IMG/VR virus record: IMGVR_UViG_2579779116_000010
Span: 1-10,740 of that record
Strand: one strand, 5' to 3'
Length of the DNA stretch: 10,740 nt
Origin: a virus
Taxonomy: Duplodnaviria; Heunggongvirae; Uroviricota; Caudoviricetes
Part shown: positions 2,320-9,533 of the stretch, piece by piece
Layout of the letters: every line of letters starts with the position of its first letter
Position numbering within the stretch: position 1 is the stretch's first letter
The notes under the pieces: model-generated
What the model was told of the DNA's origin: nothing
What the model saw: only the letters and a program-made list of their open reading frames with translations
Databases searched by the model: none
Translations under genes and position numbers: made by a program

Positions 2320-2396
2320 TGGTCCGCCACCGAGGACTCGAACCTCGCACCATCAACTTAGAAGGTTGATGCTCTATCCCGATGAGCTAGTGGCGG
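2320..2396 (-). tRNA. tRNA-Arg, anticodon UCU (reads AGA), 77 nt with encoded CCA
   Basis: Reverse complement CCGCCAC-TA-GCTC-ATCGGGATA-GAGC-A-TCAAC-CTTCTAA-GTTGA-TGGTG-CGAGG-TTCGAGT-CCTCG-GTGGCGG-A-CCA folds as a cloverleaf: 7-bp acceptor stem, D stem GCTC/GAGC, anticodon loop CU-UCU-AA, T loop TTCGAGT. Resembles E. coli argU and the argN-type tRNA of lambdoid/Stx phages. Confidence 0.85.
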
Positions 2397-2397
2397 T

Positions 2398-2473
2398 TGG
2401 TGGCCCTTGCTGGATTTGAACCAGCGACCTGGCGATTATGAGTCGCTCGCTCTCACCACTGAGCTAAAGGGCC
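2398..2473 (-). tRNA. tRNA-Ile2 (anticodon CAU, lysidine type; formally Met-like), 76 nt with encoded CCA
   Basis: Reverse complement GGCCCTTTAGCTCAGTGGTGAGAGCGAGCGACTCATAATCGCCAGGTCGCTGGTTCAAATCCAGCAAGGGCCACCA. Cloverleaf with anticodon loop CT-CAT-AA. Very close to my recollection of E. coli ileX/ileY; corresponds to ileZ of lambdoid phages. Separated from tRNA-Arg by 1 nt. Confidence 0.85.
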
Positions 2474-2670: not shown

Positions 2671-2699
2671 AATATATGCCTTTCAATCTACTTTTGCAA
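2671..2699 (-). promoter_or_regulatory. pR'-like late promoter (TTGCAA-N17-TATATT) overlapping the 3' end of the Q-like gene
   Basis: Minus strand -35 TTGCAA (plus 2694-2699), 17-nt spacer, -10 TATATT (plus 2671-2676). Predicted start near 2664, about 70 nt upstream of the tR'-like terminator. This matches the lambda Q/pR'/tR' arrangement. Confidence 0.45.
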
Positions 2700-3372
2700 C
2701 ACTTTGCTTTGAAAATGCCGCCTTTTGTTTTGAACGCGTTCTCATTACAAACAATAAAGCCCCACTATCCAGTCGGTAAAAAATGTGTTTCATTGCAACC
2801 CAGTGACGAGTAAATGTTTTGGACCAGTTTTTAGTTGTCACTCCCGCCAGTAATGCCAGCTCCTGGTATTCATAACCTTCCCCACCAAAAAGTTCTGCTT
2901 TTACTGCCTGCGCCGCCAGCCAGATTAATTTTTTCAGGCGTTCCTGCGTTTTCCCTGCAATTTTTCTGGTACCGGATTGAGTATTAAATTCATTCCACGC
3001 CCACTGTGTTATCGCGATCTGATATTCCCAACAAATACTCCCGCTGTAACACCACAACAACCAGGCTTTATGATGTTCTTCAAGAGACAGAACAGCCCGC
3101 CGCCACGATGATGTCGAAAACTCAACCGGACTGACCAGAGGAATTGACGTCCCCTTCGCCAGCGATTGTTTCCCCGGGATTGGTGGATTATCCCGCGTAA
3201 TCATTTTTCCGGTCACTTCATCTCGGTACCGGATTTTTTTACGCCTGTAACGCCCTGTATCAAACATGGCATTCTCCTGCCAGGCTTCAAGCTGACCTTT
3301 TGTTGCCCCACTCAAATCAGCGGTGGCGATAATGAGCTGCTCACGCACAAACTGTAAATACTGGTTATTCAT
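2683..3372 (-). CDS. Putative late-gene antiterminator (Q-like), 229 aa
   Basis: ORF-track ORF 2683..3378, trimmed to the ATG at 3370-3372, which overlaps the rusA stop as ATGA. Assigned by position only: directly downstream of rusA and directly upstream of the pR'/tR' module and phage tRNAs. I could not confirm family membership from the sequence. Confidence 0.5.
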   Translation of the reverse strand: MNNQYLQFVREQLIIATADLSGATKGQLEAWQENAMFDTGRYRRKKIRYRDEVTGKMITRDNPPIPGKQSLAKGTSIPLVSPVEFSTSSWRRAVLSLEEHHKAWLLWCYSGSICWEYQIAITQWAWNEFNTQSGTRKIAGKTQERLKKLIWLAAQAVKAELFGGEGYEYQELALLAGVTTKNWSKTFTRHWVAMKHIFYRLDSGALLFVMRTRSKQKAAFSKQSVAKVD

Positions 3373-3734
3373 GCGCACTCCAGTTCTGTGATTTTTATCC
3401 CCAGCCGCCCACCAGGAACGAGCTGACCGCGCACAATATTGATTTCATCAAACTGCTCGTCGTCTATAAGTAGTCCGGCATGCGTCAGCGCATCCAGTGG
3501 TGCCTTCAGGATATTGTCCAGGTCGCGGCGGCGCTTATCCGGTGGCTCCGCAATAATCTTTATCGCCAGCCTTCCGGACAGGTTTAATTTCAACCGCTGC
3601 TGGCGAACAATAAGCGCCACATCACGGCGATAACGCTCACCGGCTTTTGATACAAAATATGTGCTGCCACGACGTCGCCAGTAAGTGTTCACCGTTGGCG
3701 GGTAAGGCAAAACAAATTCTATGCGTTCAGTCAT
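3369..3734 (-). CDS. rusA: Holliday-junction resolvase RusA (crossover junction endodeoxyribonuclease), 121 aa
   Basis: ORF-track ORF 3369..3734. MTERIEFVLPYPPTVNTYWRRRGSTYFVSKAGERYRRDVA...PDKRRRDLDNILKAPLDALTHAGLLIDDEQ...GGRLGIKITE aligns motif by motif with E. coli RusA as I recall it (LPxPPSxNxYY, PDRRRRDLDN, DALT, DD, GGRL, ITE), including the catalytic Asp cluster. Confidence 0.85.
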   Translation of the reverse strand: MTERIEFVLPYPPTVNTYWRRRGSTYFVSKAGERYRRDVALIVRQQRLKLNLSGRLAIKIIAEPPDKRRRDLDNILKAPLDALTHAGLLIDDEQFDEINIVRGQLVPGGRLGIKITELECA

Positions 3735-4793
3735 TCATGCTTTCCACTTCAGGACACCCGAATTTCTCGCGTGCATTAAAAAACGAATCAGCAACAACAG
3801 CTGGCTGCCGTGTTTTTCTTCAAAATCTTTTACCCCGGCGTGCAGTTCGTTATGACATTTACGGCACAGCGGAATAACAAACAAATCATCAGCCTTTGTT
3901 CCCATCCCTCCCAGTCCATGACCAATGATGTGATGCGGATCATCTGCCTGATTACCGCACGTCATGCATTTCTGCGTTTTTACCCAGCGCGTGTATACAG
4001 GCATCTCTTCCCGTTGTGGTTTCTGGCGCTGGAGATACTGAGTCGGTGACTCCGGATCAACAGCAATGCTGACCACCGTCTTTTCCTGTGGCGGGTTCTG
4101 TTGCTGGTGGGCGTGAGGCAGCGGCGCAAGATTTTTTGTGCGCTGTTTCAGTATGCTGGTGGCGGTCTGCTCTCCCGGTACGATGTCGCTTTCACGGTAC
4201 ATTGAGCGGATTTTTTCCGCACGCAACCCCAGCGAACGACGTAATACCACTTCCGGTAGCGCGTCCGCCACCTGATTGCGGACCGCCCACCAGGATAATT
4301 CAGCCAGAGATAATTCACGCTCCTGCGTACCGCTTATTGCGTGACCGATGACGTCAATCATCCATGCTGACAGGTTTTGATGAGCAAGTTGCTCGAGTGA
4401 TTCGGATGTCTGGTCACGCAGCTGGTTGTCGCAGTGCCAGCACAACACCATTGCGCCGGTACCATAACGGTGAATAACGGTTTCGCTGTGATGATAATCG
4501 CCGTGTGGCCACTGGCAGGATTTAACATGACGCAGGAGCCAGTCAGACAGTGCACCAGCGCCGCCGGCAGCACGAATCACCCGCTCATCGCTGAAAAATG
4601 GCAGCAGAGATTTGTCTTCTGCCAGCGGCTGGCGAACGGCAGGAACGACCCCGGACGGCAGACCGCGCATGCTTTTTGGCTCCGGTTCAACCAGCACTCT
4701 GCCGTTATGGAATACCTGCATGGATTCACGACCTGGCTTAAGGACCACCAGCCCGAGTTCCGGTACCGGAACAGGTCGAAGTAATACGCGCAC
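3735..4793 (-). CDS. ydfU: DUF968-type protein with C-terminal HNH-like zinc-finger motif (YdfU-like), 352 aa, GTG start
   Basis: ORF-track ORF 3735..4793. GTG start with GGAG 5 nt upstream. C-terminus CMTCGNQADDPHHIIGHGLGG...IPLCRKCHNELH has a CxxC...HH...CxxCH pattern. The size and its position between a small ORF and the nin/Q region match my recollection of Qin ydfU; the gene symbol is by synteny only. Confidence 0.6.
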   Translation of the reverse strand: MRVLLRPVPVPELGLVVLKPGRESMQVFHNGRVLVEPEPKSMRGLPSGVVPAVRQPLAEDKSLLPFFSDERVIRAAGGAGALSDWLLRHVKSCQWPHGDYHHSETVIHRYGTGAMVLCWHCDNQLRDQTSESLEQLAHQNLSAWMIDVIGHAISGTQERELSLAELSWWAVRNQVADALPEVVLRRSLGLRAEKIRSMYRESDIVPGEQTATSILKQRTKNLAPLPHAHQQQNPPQEKTVVSIAVDPESPTQYLQRQKPQREEMPVYTRWVKTQKCMTCGNQADDPHHIIGHGLGGMGTKADDLFVIPLCRKCHNELHAGVKDFEEKHGSQLLLLIRFLMHARNSGVLKWKA

Positions 4794-4794
4794 G

Positions 4795-5067
4795 TTATCT
4801 CCAGATTCGTTGCTGGAATGTGCGGGACGGGCGTGGTGGGCGTTCGGAATAAGGGAGCCTGACGTAGATTATCCAGTGACGATAATCGAGGCTGAGAGCT
4901 TTCCTAAACTCATACCCACGTCTGCGGTAGTTATGAATCAGCCATTCGGCCTGTTCTTCAGTGCAGGGGTCATGCTGGTACCAGTCACATTTGAATGTGT
5001 GAGGGCGCCGCCCGTGCCCGCTGGCAAGGTCGGTATCAGAATTGTGATGTTTGGTATTGTGCGCCAT
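4795..5067 (-). CDS. Hypothetical protein, about 90 aa, in the position that rem occupies in Qin
   Basis: ORF-track ORF 4795..5148 uses a TTG start that lies inside the terminator at 5138-5165, so I shortened it to the first ATG (5065-5067, MAHNTKHH...). SD is weak (AGAGA). The stop abuts the GTG start of the DUF968 gene. No recognisable motif. Confidence 0.35.
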   Translation of the reverse strand: MAHNTKHHNSDTDLASGHGRRPHTFKCDWYQHDPCTEEQAEWLIHNYRRRGYEFRKALSLDYRHWIIYVRLPYSERPPRPSRTFQQRIWR

Positions 5068-5137
5068 CGGTTGTCTCTGCTGGCGCAGCAGGTGCCAGTT
5101 GTTCAGGCTGGCATGCGTATTGTAAACCAGAATGCCA

Positions 5138-5165
5138 GAAAAAAACAAAACCCGCCGAAGCGGGT
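5138..5165 (-). terminator. Intrinsic terminator downstream of the lipoprotein gene
   Basis: Minus strand reads ACCCGC-TTCG-GCGGG-TTTTGTTTTTTT (plus 5139-5165): 5-bp GC stem, UUCG tetraloop, T-rich tail. Confidence 0.6.
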
Positions 5166-5294: not shown

Positions 5295-5687
5295 TTACTG
5301 CCCTGTTTTAACGAAGTTTTTAAAGGAAACAACTGCCTGATAGGGGTTTGGTTGACAGCCAAACATATTGTCGCAAAAAGGCTTGATGAAAATTCTTGAG
5401 GATCCATCTTCATTTGGCATTTTACTCACTTGATAAGCGAGGAATGGACTATTTGGAGAGGGATTATAAGTGGAAATTAGCGTGTCTGTCGCCGTTTGAA
5501 TTTTCCATGAGGAATTATTAGCCAACCAGAATTGCGCTCGTTTCCAATAAAAGTCACATTGCTTTTCATCATTACATGTTAGTGGCTTCATTGCTTCTGC
5601 TTTCAACGCTGGATCGACCTTTGCTGCACACCCTCCCAACATTACTGTTGCAATCATTACACCTGCGACTAAAACAAGTTTCTTCAT
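5295..5687 (-). CDS. Lipoprotein, 130 aa (signal peptide with lipobox LGG-C, mature part with four further Cys); moron-like
   Basis: ORF-track ORF 5295..5687. MKKLVLVAGVMIATVMLGGC... is a classic type II signal peptide with lipobox. Visibly more AT-rich than the flanking genes. Bracketed by terminator-like hairpins at 5745-5765 and 5138-5165. No family recognised. Confidence 0.7.
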   Translation of the reverse strand: MKKLVLVAGVMIATVMLGGCAAKVDPALKAEAMKPLTCNDEKQCDFYWKRAQFWLANNSSWKIQTATDTLISTYNPSPNSPFLAYQVSKMPNEDGSSRIFIKPFCDNMFGCQPNPYQAVVSFKNFVKTGQ

Positions 5688-7759: not shown

Positions 7760-9270
7760 ACTCAGCGCGTTTCTGGCATATCCCCGGTAAAACAAGTAAC
7801 AAACCACCCGAAAATGAACACCAGAAACGCGACTTAAGAATCTACCCTATGAATGGATATGCACTCAACCGAATCGATCTTGGTTTCAATCTTTTTTATC
7901 GGGATCAGGCTTCTTTTTAGGTAACTTCGGGGGCTTAACTTGCTGATGACTTTGCGTTCGGCGCGTAAGCCAGGGATGGTCAGCTTTAGGTTTAACATAG
8001 TATTTTGAGCGTAAATCAATACGGGCATTATCCACTCGTTCATGGACACTCTTTTCATCATCCGGTGGTATAGGCTCCGGGCCATCAACATACTTTTCCC
8101 AGCCCAGCGCTTTCCCGTCATACAGAACGTTAATTTCACCGTCAAAGTTCTCGCATACAGTAACAACCGAATGCCTAAGTCGATATCCCCGGCCCTCACT
8201 GCGTACCTGAAACGCACTGCTTTTGTACTGGAAAGTGAGATTTTTAGACAGAACGCGCTTCGCCTGTAGGCTGAAGATATAACCCAGTTCCTCTTCAGAA
8301 TGGTGCACATCAAGATGAGCATTATCAGTAGTACGAGGCGACGTAGCGAACCGGTTGTTATAGGCTTCAATAAAGGTCGGCAACCATGCATTTGCTGTTT
8401 CAATATCACTGATATTCTGAAGCCGCATTTCTTTGACCAGCCTGTCCTGTAGTGTCTGATTGGCGCGCTCTACCCGCCCTTTTGCCTGCGGGCTGTTGGC
8501 ATGGATTGGCTCGATGCCCAGTGTCTTTATCGCACGAGTGAACTGGGTCAGCTCACCTTCCCGCTCTGGGTTATTTACCCTGAATATACTGTGTCTATCA
8601 GAGTAGAGAGCGAGCGGTACGCCATGATCATTAAGGTAACCCCGGAGGGTTTCCATGTAAGCCCGGGTTGTTTCAGCAGGCACAAAACGCAACGCCATCA
8701 ACGCACTGGTGGCATCATCAATGAAAACGATCAGTGTACATCTGGGGCCTCGATTTTCAAACCAGTCATGAGGTGAGCCATCAATCTGGATCAGTTCACC
8801 GTAAGATGGTCGTCGCATGCGGCGTTGATATATACGGGCAATTTTACGACGGCGTTCACGCCATAACCCCTCTTCTATCATCCACTTTCTGAGAGTTTCA
8901 ACGGATAAAGATAAACCGTGTATCTCGCGCAATTTTTCGCACGCAAACGTAGGTCCAAAATCAGCGTAACGGCCTTTGAGGAGTGAAATTACTGTTGCTC
9001 TGAATTCAGTAGAAAAGGAATTATTAGGACGCTTTCCACGTCGGTGGGAAACCAGACCAGAAGGCCCTTCATTTCTATACCGTTGCACCAGACGTTTAAC
9101 CTGCCGAATAGAAATGCCAATGCGTGCCGCAGCTTGTTCCTGAATAATCTGAAGTCGGTGGAGTTCCTTATGACTCATCGTAACAGTCTCTTTGATCATG
9201 AAAAATCCCCCAGAGAATTGTCTGGGGACATTTTAGAATGGTTCAAAGGGGACATTACAGCTTGGTGTTA
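7760..9270 (-). mobile_element. Insertion sequence carrying the DDE transposase; boundaries approximate
   Basis: Transposase gene plus flanking repeat-rich DNA: an 11-bp perfect inverted repeat CGCGTTTCTGG / CCAGAAACGCG at 7766-7776 and 7821-7831, and two GGGGACATT direct repeats at 9224-9232 and 9249-9257. I could not identify matching terminal inverted repeats or a target-site duplication. Confidence 0.3.
7886..9199 (-). CDS. DDE transposase (rve / integrase-core type, N-terminal HTH), 437 aa; IS481- or ISNCY-like, family not resolved
   Basis: ORF-track ORF 7886..9199. N-terminal HTH-like region (SHKELHRLQIIQEQAAARIGISIRQVKRLVQRY). Catalytic triad candidates are D in LIQIDGSPHDW, D in ALYSDRHSIF and E in GRVERANQTLQDR with basic residues after the E. 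Single long ORF with SD GGGGGA. Confidence 0.8.
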   Translation of the reverse strand: MIKETVTMSHKELHRLQIIQEQAAARIGISIRQVKRLVQRYRNEGPSGLVSHRRGKRPNNSFSTEFRATVISLLKGRYADFGPTFACEKLREIHGLSLSVETLRKWMIEEGLWRERRRKIARIYQRRMRRPSYGELIQIDGSPHDWFENRGPRCTLIVFIDDATSALMALRFVPAETTRAYMETLRGYLNDHGVPLALYSDRHSIFRVNNPEREGELTQFTRAIKTLGIEPIHANSPQAKGRVERANQTLQDRLVKEMRLQNISDIETANAWLPTFIEAYNNRFATSPRTTDNAHLDVHHSEEELGYIFSLQAKRVLSKNLTFQYKSSAFQVRSEGRGYRLRHSVVTVCENFDGEINVLYDGKALGWEKYVDGPEPIPPDDEKSVHERVDNARIDLRSKYYVKPKADHPWLTRRTQSHQQVKPPKLPKKKPDPDKKD

Positions 9271-9533
9271 ACAATAGCCTGCTTCTCCGTGCCTTTCGGC
9301 ACGTAAGAGGCTAACCTACATGTGTCTAGCATGAAATTGGCCTCAGATTAATGTTAAGCGTCTTGCAGGACGCGTAATGTTAACTGGGGCTTTTCTCTAT
9401 CTGCCGTTGGTGTCCATGCCCGAGGCAGATAGCCTCAAGCACCCGCAGTCATTCTACTTAACTAAGATTTCCCCGCAAACCGTTTTTGTCCAGCACAGTA
9501 AATATCCAACTAAACCAATGGAGTTCGCTGTAT

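Follow-up and report, generated by a model that had tools for sequence, protein, structure and literature searches.

The gene analysed here is an ordinary, intact and typical copy of ydfU (DUF968), a widespread prophage gene, and its product would be a delayed-early protein with two domains, made by a Qin/lambdoid prophage. The C-terminus of this protein almost certainly has an HNH fold, and catalytic competence is likely. In the reading we prefer, to which we assign a probability of roughly 55%, the protein would play a role similar to that of lambda Rap, as a structure-directed HNH nuclease whose target would be branched phage DNA, working with, or ahead of, a junction resolvase. The evidence comes from the fold and residue conservation of the C-terminal module, from the genes found beside DUF968 across species and from a larger N-terminal domain with a Cys/His site of its own.

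The window, meaning the whole stretch of 10,740 nucleotides that was analysed, belongs to a lambdoid prophage of the Qin type from Escherichia. On its minus strand lie hokD, relE, relB, a small lipoprotein ORF, an ORF of about 90 codons, the DUF968 gene, rusA, Q, two tRNA genes and a putative holin; ydfV and flxA are on the plus strand, and an IS transposase interrupts the early region of the prophage. The best full-length DNA match of the window is E. coli NCTC9699, with 97% identity over two thirds of the window and the same gene order around Q.

The DUF968 gene occupies a place in the nin region ahead of Q, in the order orf90-DUF968-rusA-Q (Table 1). Its ORF is intact, and the sequence reads GGAG about 5-6 nt ahead of the GTG start, which is supported because homologues share an M-R-x-L-L N-terminus. 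The small upstream ORF ends 1 nt ahead of this GTG; its true product has about 90 aa, and the counterpart in NCTC9699 is annotated as a 92-aa hypothetical protein. At the other end of the gene the stop codon TGA (3735-3737) abuts the ATG of rusA, giving on the minus strand the TGAATG junction that the preliminary description had read, and the 3' end of rusA overlaps the start of Q. The hairpin ahead of the whole block may be a nin-type terminator, as judged from its sequence.

Table 1. Features of the DUF968 gene, its product and the adjacent genes, in window coordinates
Feature	Position	Strand	Details
ydfU-type DUF968 gene	3735..4793	minus	352 aa, GTG start, TGA stop; from ORF list and sequence
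rusA, Holliday junction resolvase gene, 121-aa ORF	3369..3734	minus	Pfam RusA E 8.7e-16, and PHROG 34
Q antiterminator gene, PF06323 type	2683..3378	minus	Pfam Phage_antiter_Q E 1.8e-91
Small upstream ORF	4795..5148	minus	PHROG 1212 'unknown', covering residues 52-117 of the listed ORF
Terminator-like GC hairpin and T-run	5150..5165	minus	Consensus scan; 5' of the orf90-DUF968-rusA-Q block
N-terminal domain, residues 1-225	4119..4793	minus	AlphaFold model of the domain alone: pLDDT 92.3, pTM 0.81
N-domain Cys/His cluster, residues 93-123, putative second zinc site	4425..4517	minus	C93-Q...Y-H101-H...C118-W-H-C121-D-N
Interdomain linker, residues 226-240, low confidence	4074..4118	minus	pLDDT <50 at residues 227-237
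C-terminal HNH (His-Me finger) module, residues 249-352	3738..4049	minus	Exchangeable as a cassette
HNH motif proper, residues 276-318	3840..3968	minus	C276xxC279, D284-D-P-H287-H288, K300, D303, P308-L-C310-x-x-C313-H314-x-x-x-H318

Assignment of the protein to DUF968, already made in the preliminary description, lies far beyond chance. Pfam DUF968 (PF06147) is matched with E 1.5e-63 and 214.3 bits (cut-off 27.8) over residues 160-344, spanning profile positions 1-169 of 171, and the same profile is matched by 56 of the 57 aligned relatives. HNHc_6 (PF16784) is matched at residues 267-328 with 31.8 bits against a cut-off of 26.6, and PHROG 96, 'HNH endonuclease', over residues 1-349 with E 8e-165; Pfam NinG (PF05766) gave no hit at E <= 0.1. 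The window protein is 95-97% identical to large E. coli clusters of 'DUF968 domain-containing protein' and is colinear with K-12 YdfU, N-terminal part included (80% identity over 348 residues, no gaps). Of 5426 complete E. coli genomes, 4485 match the stretch from DUF968 to rusA, and 2429 do so with coverage of 80% or more, which bears out that the family is widespread.

The Cys/His strings on which the nuclease assignment had been based are all present: CMTCG at residues 276-280, DDPHHIIGHG at 284-293 and PLCRKCHNELH at 308-318. They are C-terminal, as described, but it takes the last 77 residues, not 60, to include them all. The AlphaFold model of the whole window protein, built on 57 diverse relatives, has a pLDDT of 90.5 and a pTM of 0.61, and contains a beta-beta-alpha metal core of strands 285-288 and 306-309 and helix 311-319 (pLDDT 88-98). 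Foldseek comparison of the whole protein with the PDB gave weak matches (E at least 0.4), headed by HNH domains (Cas5-HNH, CBASS Cap5 and IscB), with ScoMcrA and Gme HNH lower in the same list. In the BFVD the last approximately 95 residues matched phage DUF968 proteins of about 110 aa (E 1e-7, TM 0.79). A C-terminal profile built without YbcO retrieved YbcO (3g27) at E 0.014, the McrA HNH at E 0.039 and the IscB HNH at E 0.5; these hits among PDB sequences came from the C-terminal sub-profile alone, the full-length profile giving none. Scores of the module against the PDB, whether by fold or by profile, are all marginal (E 0.01-2), which is common with domains this small, and almost all of the matches are HNH domains. 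Structure prediction thus gives the HNH-type core that had been expected for this C-terminus.

Conservation agrees with the model. Among 15 homologues of the lambdoid clade with 31-43% identity, residues C276, C279, D284, D285, P286, H287, H288, K300, D303, P308, C310, R311, H314 and H318 are invariant, as are all Cys and His positions of the motif, C313 included. The Cys/His pattern is therefore conserved as in zinc-stabilised HNH domains, and the nuclease-type reading of the motif withstands alignment of its homologues. Asp303 aligns with the canonical HNH Asn position, is invariant in a 29-sequence alignment and pairs with the D-N of McrA. The motif of DUF968 is an H-D-H variant, in which this Asp may take the role of the Asn. 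A wider sample, made up of 34 intact full-length proteins that represent 50%-identity clusters, separates three states of the C-terminal domain. The complete set consists of four Cys (or CCCH) and four His; a subclade of eight has lost both cysteine pairs together and retains HH...H...H; and the P1 PdcB clade retains the four Cys with every catalytic His replaced. The catalytic His is kept in 30 of the 34, including the eight without zinc cysteines.

The N-terminal domain accounts for two thirds of the protein; this larger domain and its conserved Cys/His cluster had been overlooked in the preliminary description. The same 34 representatives, P1 PdcB clade included, have invariant C93 and C118; Cys or His occupies position 121 in every one of them and position 101 in all except one, and D122 is nearly invariant. 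This site is the most conserved feature of the family. In both AlphaFold models its ligands surround a beta-hairpin (strands 105-110 and 113-118) and a helix (119-125), and the modelled cluster looks like a second zinc site of the treble-clef type. From conservation and secondary structure, rather than from coordinates, we infer that zinc is bound at this four-ligand site.

Searches for relatives of the N-terminal domain placed it in no described family. Foldseek of the domain model against the PDB had a best E of 2 and TM below 0.25, with no solved structural relative. Pfam scans of residues 1-160 at E <= 10, run for 10 diverse members, left seven with no hit and three with stray, unrelated hits below threshold (E 0.05-0.16). 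The only PHROG match is PHROG 11007, 'unknown function'. There is a local likeness between LCWHCDNQL in this domain and LCRKCHNELH in the HNH helix, and we considered the domain as a degenerate second HNH that arose by internal duplication. Profile-profile alignment was colinear over 75 columns, but with E 0.063 and a probability of 0.9%; the domain model has no HNH match in the PDB by Foldseek and no conserved His in the first strand, and this origin was dropped as unsupported. An Orf-like N-terminal domain, proposed for Gram-positive 'DUF968' proteins (PMC4118853), likewise finds no Pfam or PDB support here, the HNHc_6 match being confined to profile positions 119-184 of 204, the HNH part only. 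The 'DUF968' of that report now fits Pfam HNHc_6, which is matched here in the HNH part alone. In seven sequences the N-terminal domain appears fused to tail-fibre, portal or other sequences; these were judged to be chimeras of assembly or rearrangement because the fusion points vary and the attached sequences belong to late structural proteins encoded by the same prophages. We treat the domain as a non-catalytic zinc domain.

The two parts of the protein meet at a mosaic joint. Identity to K-12 YdfU falls from 88% over residues 1-248 to 60% over residues 249-348, with a break in DNA similarity near nt 720 of the gene, and the N-terminal and HNH halves have therefore recombined as cassettes.

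The genes beside DUF968 were compared at three depths. In close relatives from viral contigs, whose loci are not independent of each other, rusA is directly 3' of DUF968 at 76 of 78 assessable loci. The species-level sample comprised 80 loci from different GTDB species, taken from genome contigs and spanning 42-96% identity. Here the gene directly downstream of DUF968 is Q in 77 cases (PF06530 in 42, PF03589 in 16, PF06323 in 12 and PHROG 753 in 7) and RusA in three. RusA stands directly upstream at 16 loci and on the same strand within 3 kb at 56, commonly with a Rha/ANT antirepressor gene between it and DUF968; 24 loci have no RusA on the same strand within 3 kb. Weak HMMs for VRR_NUC and DUF1064, built from two seeds each, had no match at these 80 enterobacterial loci; the 24 loci without RusA may carry other types of resolvase. 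No NinG/Rap homologue was found at any of the 80. In the Qin prophage of K-12, ydfU abuts ydfT(Q) and rusA is not nearby. The joint role with RusA that had been proposed from the adjacency of the two genes remains plausible but was overstated from one junction, with Q as the usual downstream gene and a K-12 ydfU that has no rusA.

In a set of seven remoter lambdoid representatives (29-38% identity), one of the next two genes encodes RusA in three, VRR_NUC in two and a DUF1064-like protein in two, three unrelated families that PHROGs label as Holliday junction resolvase. The clade that has lost the catalytic His has no nuclease neighbour: P1 pdcB and one relative precede lpa, and another lies among Ead/Ea22 genes. 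The case for a functional link to junction processing is made best by the occurrence of three resolvase families next to catalytically intact DUF968 genes and of none next to those without the His, a contrast drawn from a small sample and from lambdoid prophages in which gene order is positionally conserved anyway.

The analysis itself establishes the structure of the gene, its family, the conservation of the motif, the fold as predicted and the genes nearby. These observations suggest the following mechanism, in which metal binding, nuclease activity, the substrate and cooperation with RusA are all inferred. DUF968, rusA and Q would be transcribed together as part of the early-right operon, downstream of the terminator-like hairpin. 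The C-terminal approximately 100 residues would form an HNH (His-Me finger) nuclease module, stabilised by zinc, of the DUF968/DUF1364 (YbcO) group, with H288 as the likely general base, H287, H314 and H318 binding the catalytic metal, D303 standing in for the motif Asn, and C276, C279, C310 and C313 holding a structural zinc. The family-specific N-terminal part, of approximately 225 residues, would most likely recognise a substrate or partner. During replication and recombination the protein would nick or cut branched phage DNA, such as D-loops, forks and junction precursors, in a step upstream of or alongside the junction resolvase, and would thus do the job of lambda Rap (NinG) from the equivalent slot before Q.

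Several points count against this Rap-like role. The invariable neighbour is Q and not RusA, which is absent nearby at 24 of the 80 species loci and in K-12 Qin, and the positional gene order of lambdoid phages means that neighbourhood alone does not prove cooperation. The module has Asp for the canonical Asn, its PDB scores are marginal, and P1 pdcB is non-essential. Moreover, the zinc site of the N-terminal domain is the most conserved feature and persists in the members without catalytic His, and the core function may therefore not be catalysis. This leads to the main rival, which we regard as improbable: the N-terminal zinc domain would hold the main function, tied to the switch from early to late expression and not to recombination, with the HNH module as an accessory that can decay; the protein might, for example, bind DNA, RNA polymerase or the late activator. 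Such a function would fit the position of DUF968 directly before a late-gene activator at 77 of the 80 species loci, with four different Q families, and directly before Lpa in P1-type elements. It would also fit the retention of the N-domain ligands in every clade, including the P1 clade that lacks all catalytic His, and the independent recombination of the two domains. Against it, the N-terminal domain matches no DNA-binding or regulator family, conserved lambdoid gene order explains the placement before Q equally well, P1 lpa has its own C1-controlled promoter, and purifying selection on the HNH residues is clear in 30 of the 34 representatives. On a related and equally speculative note, the domain may be an undescribed zinc fold and the core of the family, placed before the late activator to serve the early-to-late transition, for instance by licensing or processing replication intermediates for the rolling-circle mode, together with a resolvase partner that can be exchanged (RusA, VRR_NUC or DUF1064).

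The remaining alternatives are less likely than a function in the switch. A nuclease directed by RecA or another recombinase, like P1 Ref, would cut host or phage DNA at D-loops independently of RusA, boosting recombination or degrading the host genome; the reported fusion of other DUF968 proteins to Erf/Rad52 annealases (PMC5714182, PMC4118853) is in keeping with such an activity. Three of the 57 relatives match Pfam RecA_dep_nuc weakly (best E 1e-3), and the BFVD fold matches include proteins named 'Recombination enhancement, RecA-dependent nuclease' (E 0.05-0.4). The window protein itself has no match to RecA_dep_nuc (PF16786) at E <= 0.1 and none to the Ref structure 3plw in sequence, fold or profile searches, and Ref has a disordered, basic N-terminus, unlike the folded zinc domain of 225 residues predicted here; we consider a Ref-like role doubtful. 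Less probable again is a selfish or accessory nuclease, be it a homing endonuclease cassette, an HNH protein that helps terminase in packaging or a weapon against phage or host. Such roles are common for HNH domains, and both the swapping of the module as a cassette and the mosaic neighbourhood would suit them. Yet the PADLOC defence models gave zero hits at E <= 0.1 with either the whole protein or the N-terminal domain, and expression in the lysogen seems unlikely from the terminator-like hairpin ahead of the gene in an early lytic operon. DUF968 is not terminase-adjacent, Q and the lysis cassette lying between the two at the two loci in which terminase is visible, and SfV has a separate HNH gene at the end of its genome. 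Finally, the position of the gene is fixed at 30-50% divergence, as for ordinary nin genes, in place of the sporadic presence typical of homing genes.

The HNH reading of this gene is not new, and the interpretation in the preliminary description is in essence the annotation already in the literature. In a 2017 classification of His-Me finger nucleases, DUF968 was placed with DUF1364 (YbcO, PDB 3g27) in group 7 and YdfU was named; the same work gave RusA, Q and antirepressor genes as neighbours and put forward a role in recombination or repair similar to NinG and Ref (PMC5714182). An HNH zinc finger had been noted in 'DUF968' proteins in a 2014 paper on Orf recombinases (PMC4118853), and the HNH label is carried by PHROG 96. 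Our literature searches found no biochemical test of YdfU, YbcO or PdcB and no functional study of ydfU. The family is thus functionally undefined, as the preliminary description had it, as far as experiments go, but not as regards fold class, neighbourhood and a recombination hypothesis. What is added here is the N-terminal domain with its own Cys/His site, Q as the constant neighbour, the loss of His in the PdcB clade and the mosaic joint.

As a sequence finding a typical copy of this gene adds little, the fold class and the hypothesis being in print. What still deserves attention is the uncharacterised N-terminal zinc domain, and the fact that a gene present in most E. coli genomes, where it belongs to the uncharacterised 'y-ome', is experimentally uncharted. 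The gene sits in the nin region of lambdoid genomes, the region whose Rap, Orf and RusA defined recombination functions of phages. If the protein proves to be an active branch-specific nuclease working with a resolvase, this would explain how intermediates are processed in lambdoid phages without Rap, including Stx-converting phages, and such processing of recombination and replication intermediates bears on prophage mosaicism and on the evolution of toxin phages.

Among known systems, K-12 YdfU of Qin is of the same family, architecture and prophage type, with hokD, relBE, ydfV and flxA downstream in both prophages. Its HNH module is a different allele, 60% identical, that reads CRKHH where the window protein has CRKCH, and its gene directly precedes Q, whereas the window has rusA in between. 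YbcO of DLP12 and phage 82 (DUF1364, PDB 3g27) belongs to the same His-Me finger subgroup (group 7, PMC5714182) and shares with the window protein H288, K300, D303, H314 and the C-terminal helices. It is, however, a protein of 96 aa that consists of the HNH module alone, without the N-terminal part of 250 residues, and has Ala at the position of H287 and Asp at that of H318. In DLP12 this HNH-only relative overlaps rusA, near Q, and is thus placed directly upstream of rusA like the DUF968 gene of the window.

P1 PdcB is homologous over its full length (26% identity over 90%) and shares both the zinc ligands of the N-domain and the four cysteines of the C-terminal domain. All of its catalytic His are replaced (PYIV...CQSCQRDIER), and its gene, reported as non-essential (PMC10695390), is upstream of lpa and has no nuclease neighbour. 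P1 Ref (RecA_dep_nuc, 3plw) and the HNH domains of McrA, IscB and Cap5 have in common with DUF968 the beta-beta-alpha metal fold and a motif of the HH...CxxCH type; among characterised enzymes they come closest by fold and by profile, at marginal scores, and differ in domain partners and biology (restriction, CRISPR-like systems and CBASS effectors).

For the Rap-like role the comparison of interest is lambda Rap itself, a branch-specific endonuclease of demonstrated activity in a phage that lacks RusA. Lambda NinG (PF05766) and the window protein are joined in BLASTP by a CxxCG match only (E 0.46), and their N-terminal parts differ. NinG also belongs to the His-Me finger superfamily (PMC5714182), with a CxxC...H...CxxC pattern, and in the lambda order NinG-NinH-NinI-Q it lies, like DUF968, in the nin region shortly before Q. 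The absence of NinG from the 80 DUF968 loci is consistent with the two genes filling one slot.

The N-terminal domain of the DUF968 protein holds a second conserved Cys/His cluster, composed of C93, H101, C118 and C121 followed by D122-N123, and across the family the HNH histidines are less conserved than this cluster. It lies outside Pfam coverage, and no fold match for the region was found in the PDB. In the clade of P1 PdcB, both putative zinc-ligand sets are kept and all catalytic His residues of the HNH motif are replaced. The late activator gene lpa is directly downstream of the clade's gene in P1 and in the locus of the homologue P0197, while the gene for a third member, P0226, sits amid Ead/Ea22 genes; no nuclease gene was found alongside in these three neighbourhoods. 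In the distant relatives listed in the table, the RusA place after DUF968 is taken by a VRR_NUC or DUF1064-like nuclease, which looks like a non-orthologous replacement of the resolvase partner. Both VRR_NUC cases fall in a DUF968 subclade in which the zinc cysteines of the HNH motif have been lost.

The pattern [KR]-E-[ST]-D-[IA], a short motif kept across clades, lies in a linker that is otherwise variable and predicted with lower confidence; it may be a partner-binding peptide. Compared with K-12 ydfU, the gene has a mosaic joint that falls at the interdomain boundary: the two proteins are 88% identical N-terminal and 60% identical C-terminal of the joint, and near the gene's nt 720 DNA identity drops from ~87% to ~60%. 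Chimeric entries named DUF968 are numerous in public protein sets (P0146, P0175, P0180, P0228, P0147, P0155, P0145 and P0220). In some of these the N-domain is fused to tail-fibre or other late proteins, with a junction whose place varies, and P0220 is an internal-deletion form. Such entries are probably artefacts of assembly or rearrangement, and could mislead surveys of domain architecture.

Features in the window and in loci of relatives (L-numbers)
Feature	Location	Strand	Remarks
Second conserved Cys/His cluster	window 4425-4517	-	residues 93-123, DUF968 protein
YRESDIVP motif	window ~4185-4208	-	residues ~196-203, DUF968 protein
Intragenic mosaic joint	window ~4049-4075	-	near residue 248
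tRNA genes, Arg (TCT) and CAT-anticodon tRNA called Met	window 2320-2473	-	two, phage-borne; just downstream of Q
Transposase ORF	window 7886-9199	-	intact, 437 aa
sok antitoxin RNA	window 9273-9444	-	Rfam match, 104 bits
Terminator-like hairpin	window 5150-5165	-	strong; ACCCGCTTCGGCGGGT then T-run
130-aa ORF	window 5295-5687	-	lipoprotein-type signal MKKLVLVAGVMIATVMLGGC; matches PHROG 16082, function not assigned there
P1 pdcB	L002 3905-4948		clade includes P0197, P0206, P0226
VRR_NUC or DUF1064-like nuclease genes after DUF968	L089 1359-1841; L095 4529-4999; L085 4903-5265; L090 1112-1450		distant relatives

Between flxA and the early region sits the inserted transposase ORF, annotated in related genomes as IS1202-like ISEsa1 / ISNCY family; its presence suggests that the prophage is defective. 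The sok match adjoins the transposase gene and no intact hok ORF was found downstream of the match, so this may be the remnant of a second hok/sok locus that the IS insertion cut short.

The terminator-like hairpin stands directly upstream of the orf90-DUF968-rusA-Q block and resembles nin-region terminators that require antitermination. Where K-12 Qin carries rem, the window has the 130-aa lipoprotein-type ORF. The window's two tRNA genes just after Q are arranged much as in Stx-type lambdoid phages. At the corresponding position, the related strain E. coli NCTC9699 is annotated with tRNA-Thr and tRNA-Ile.
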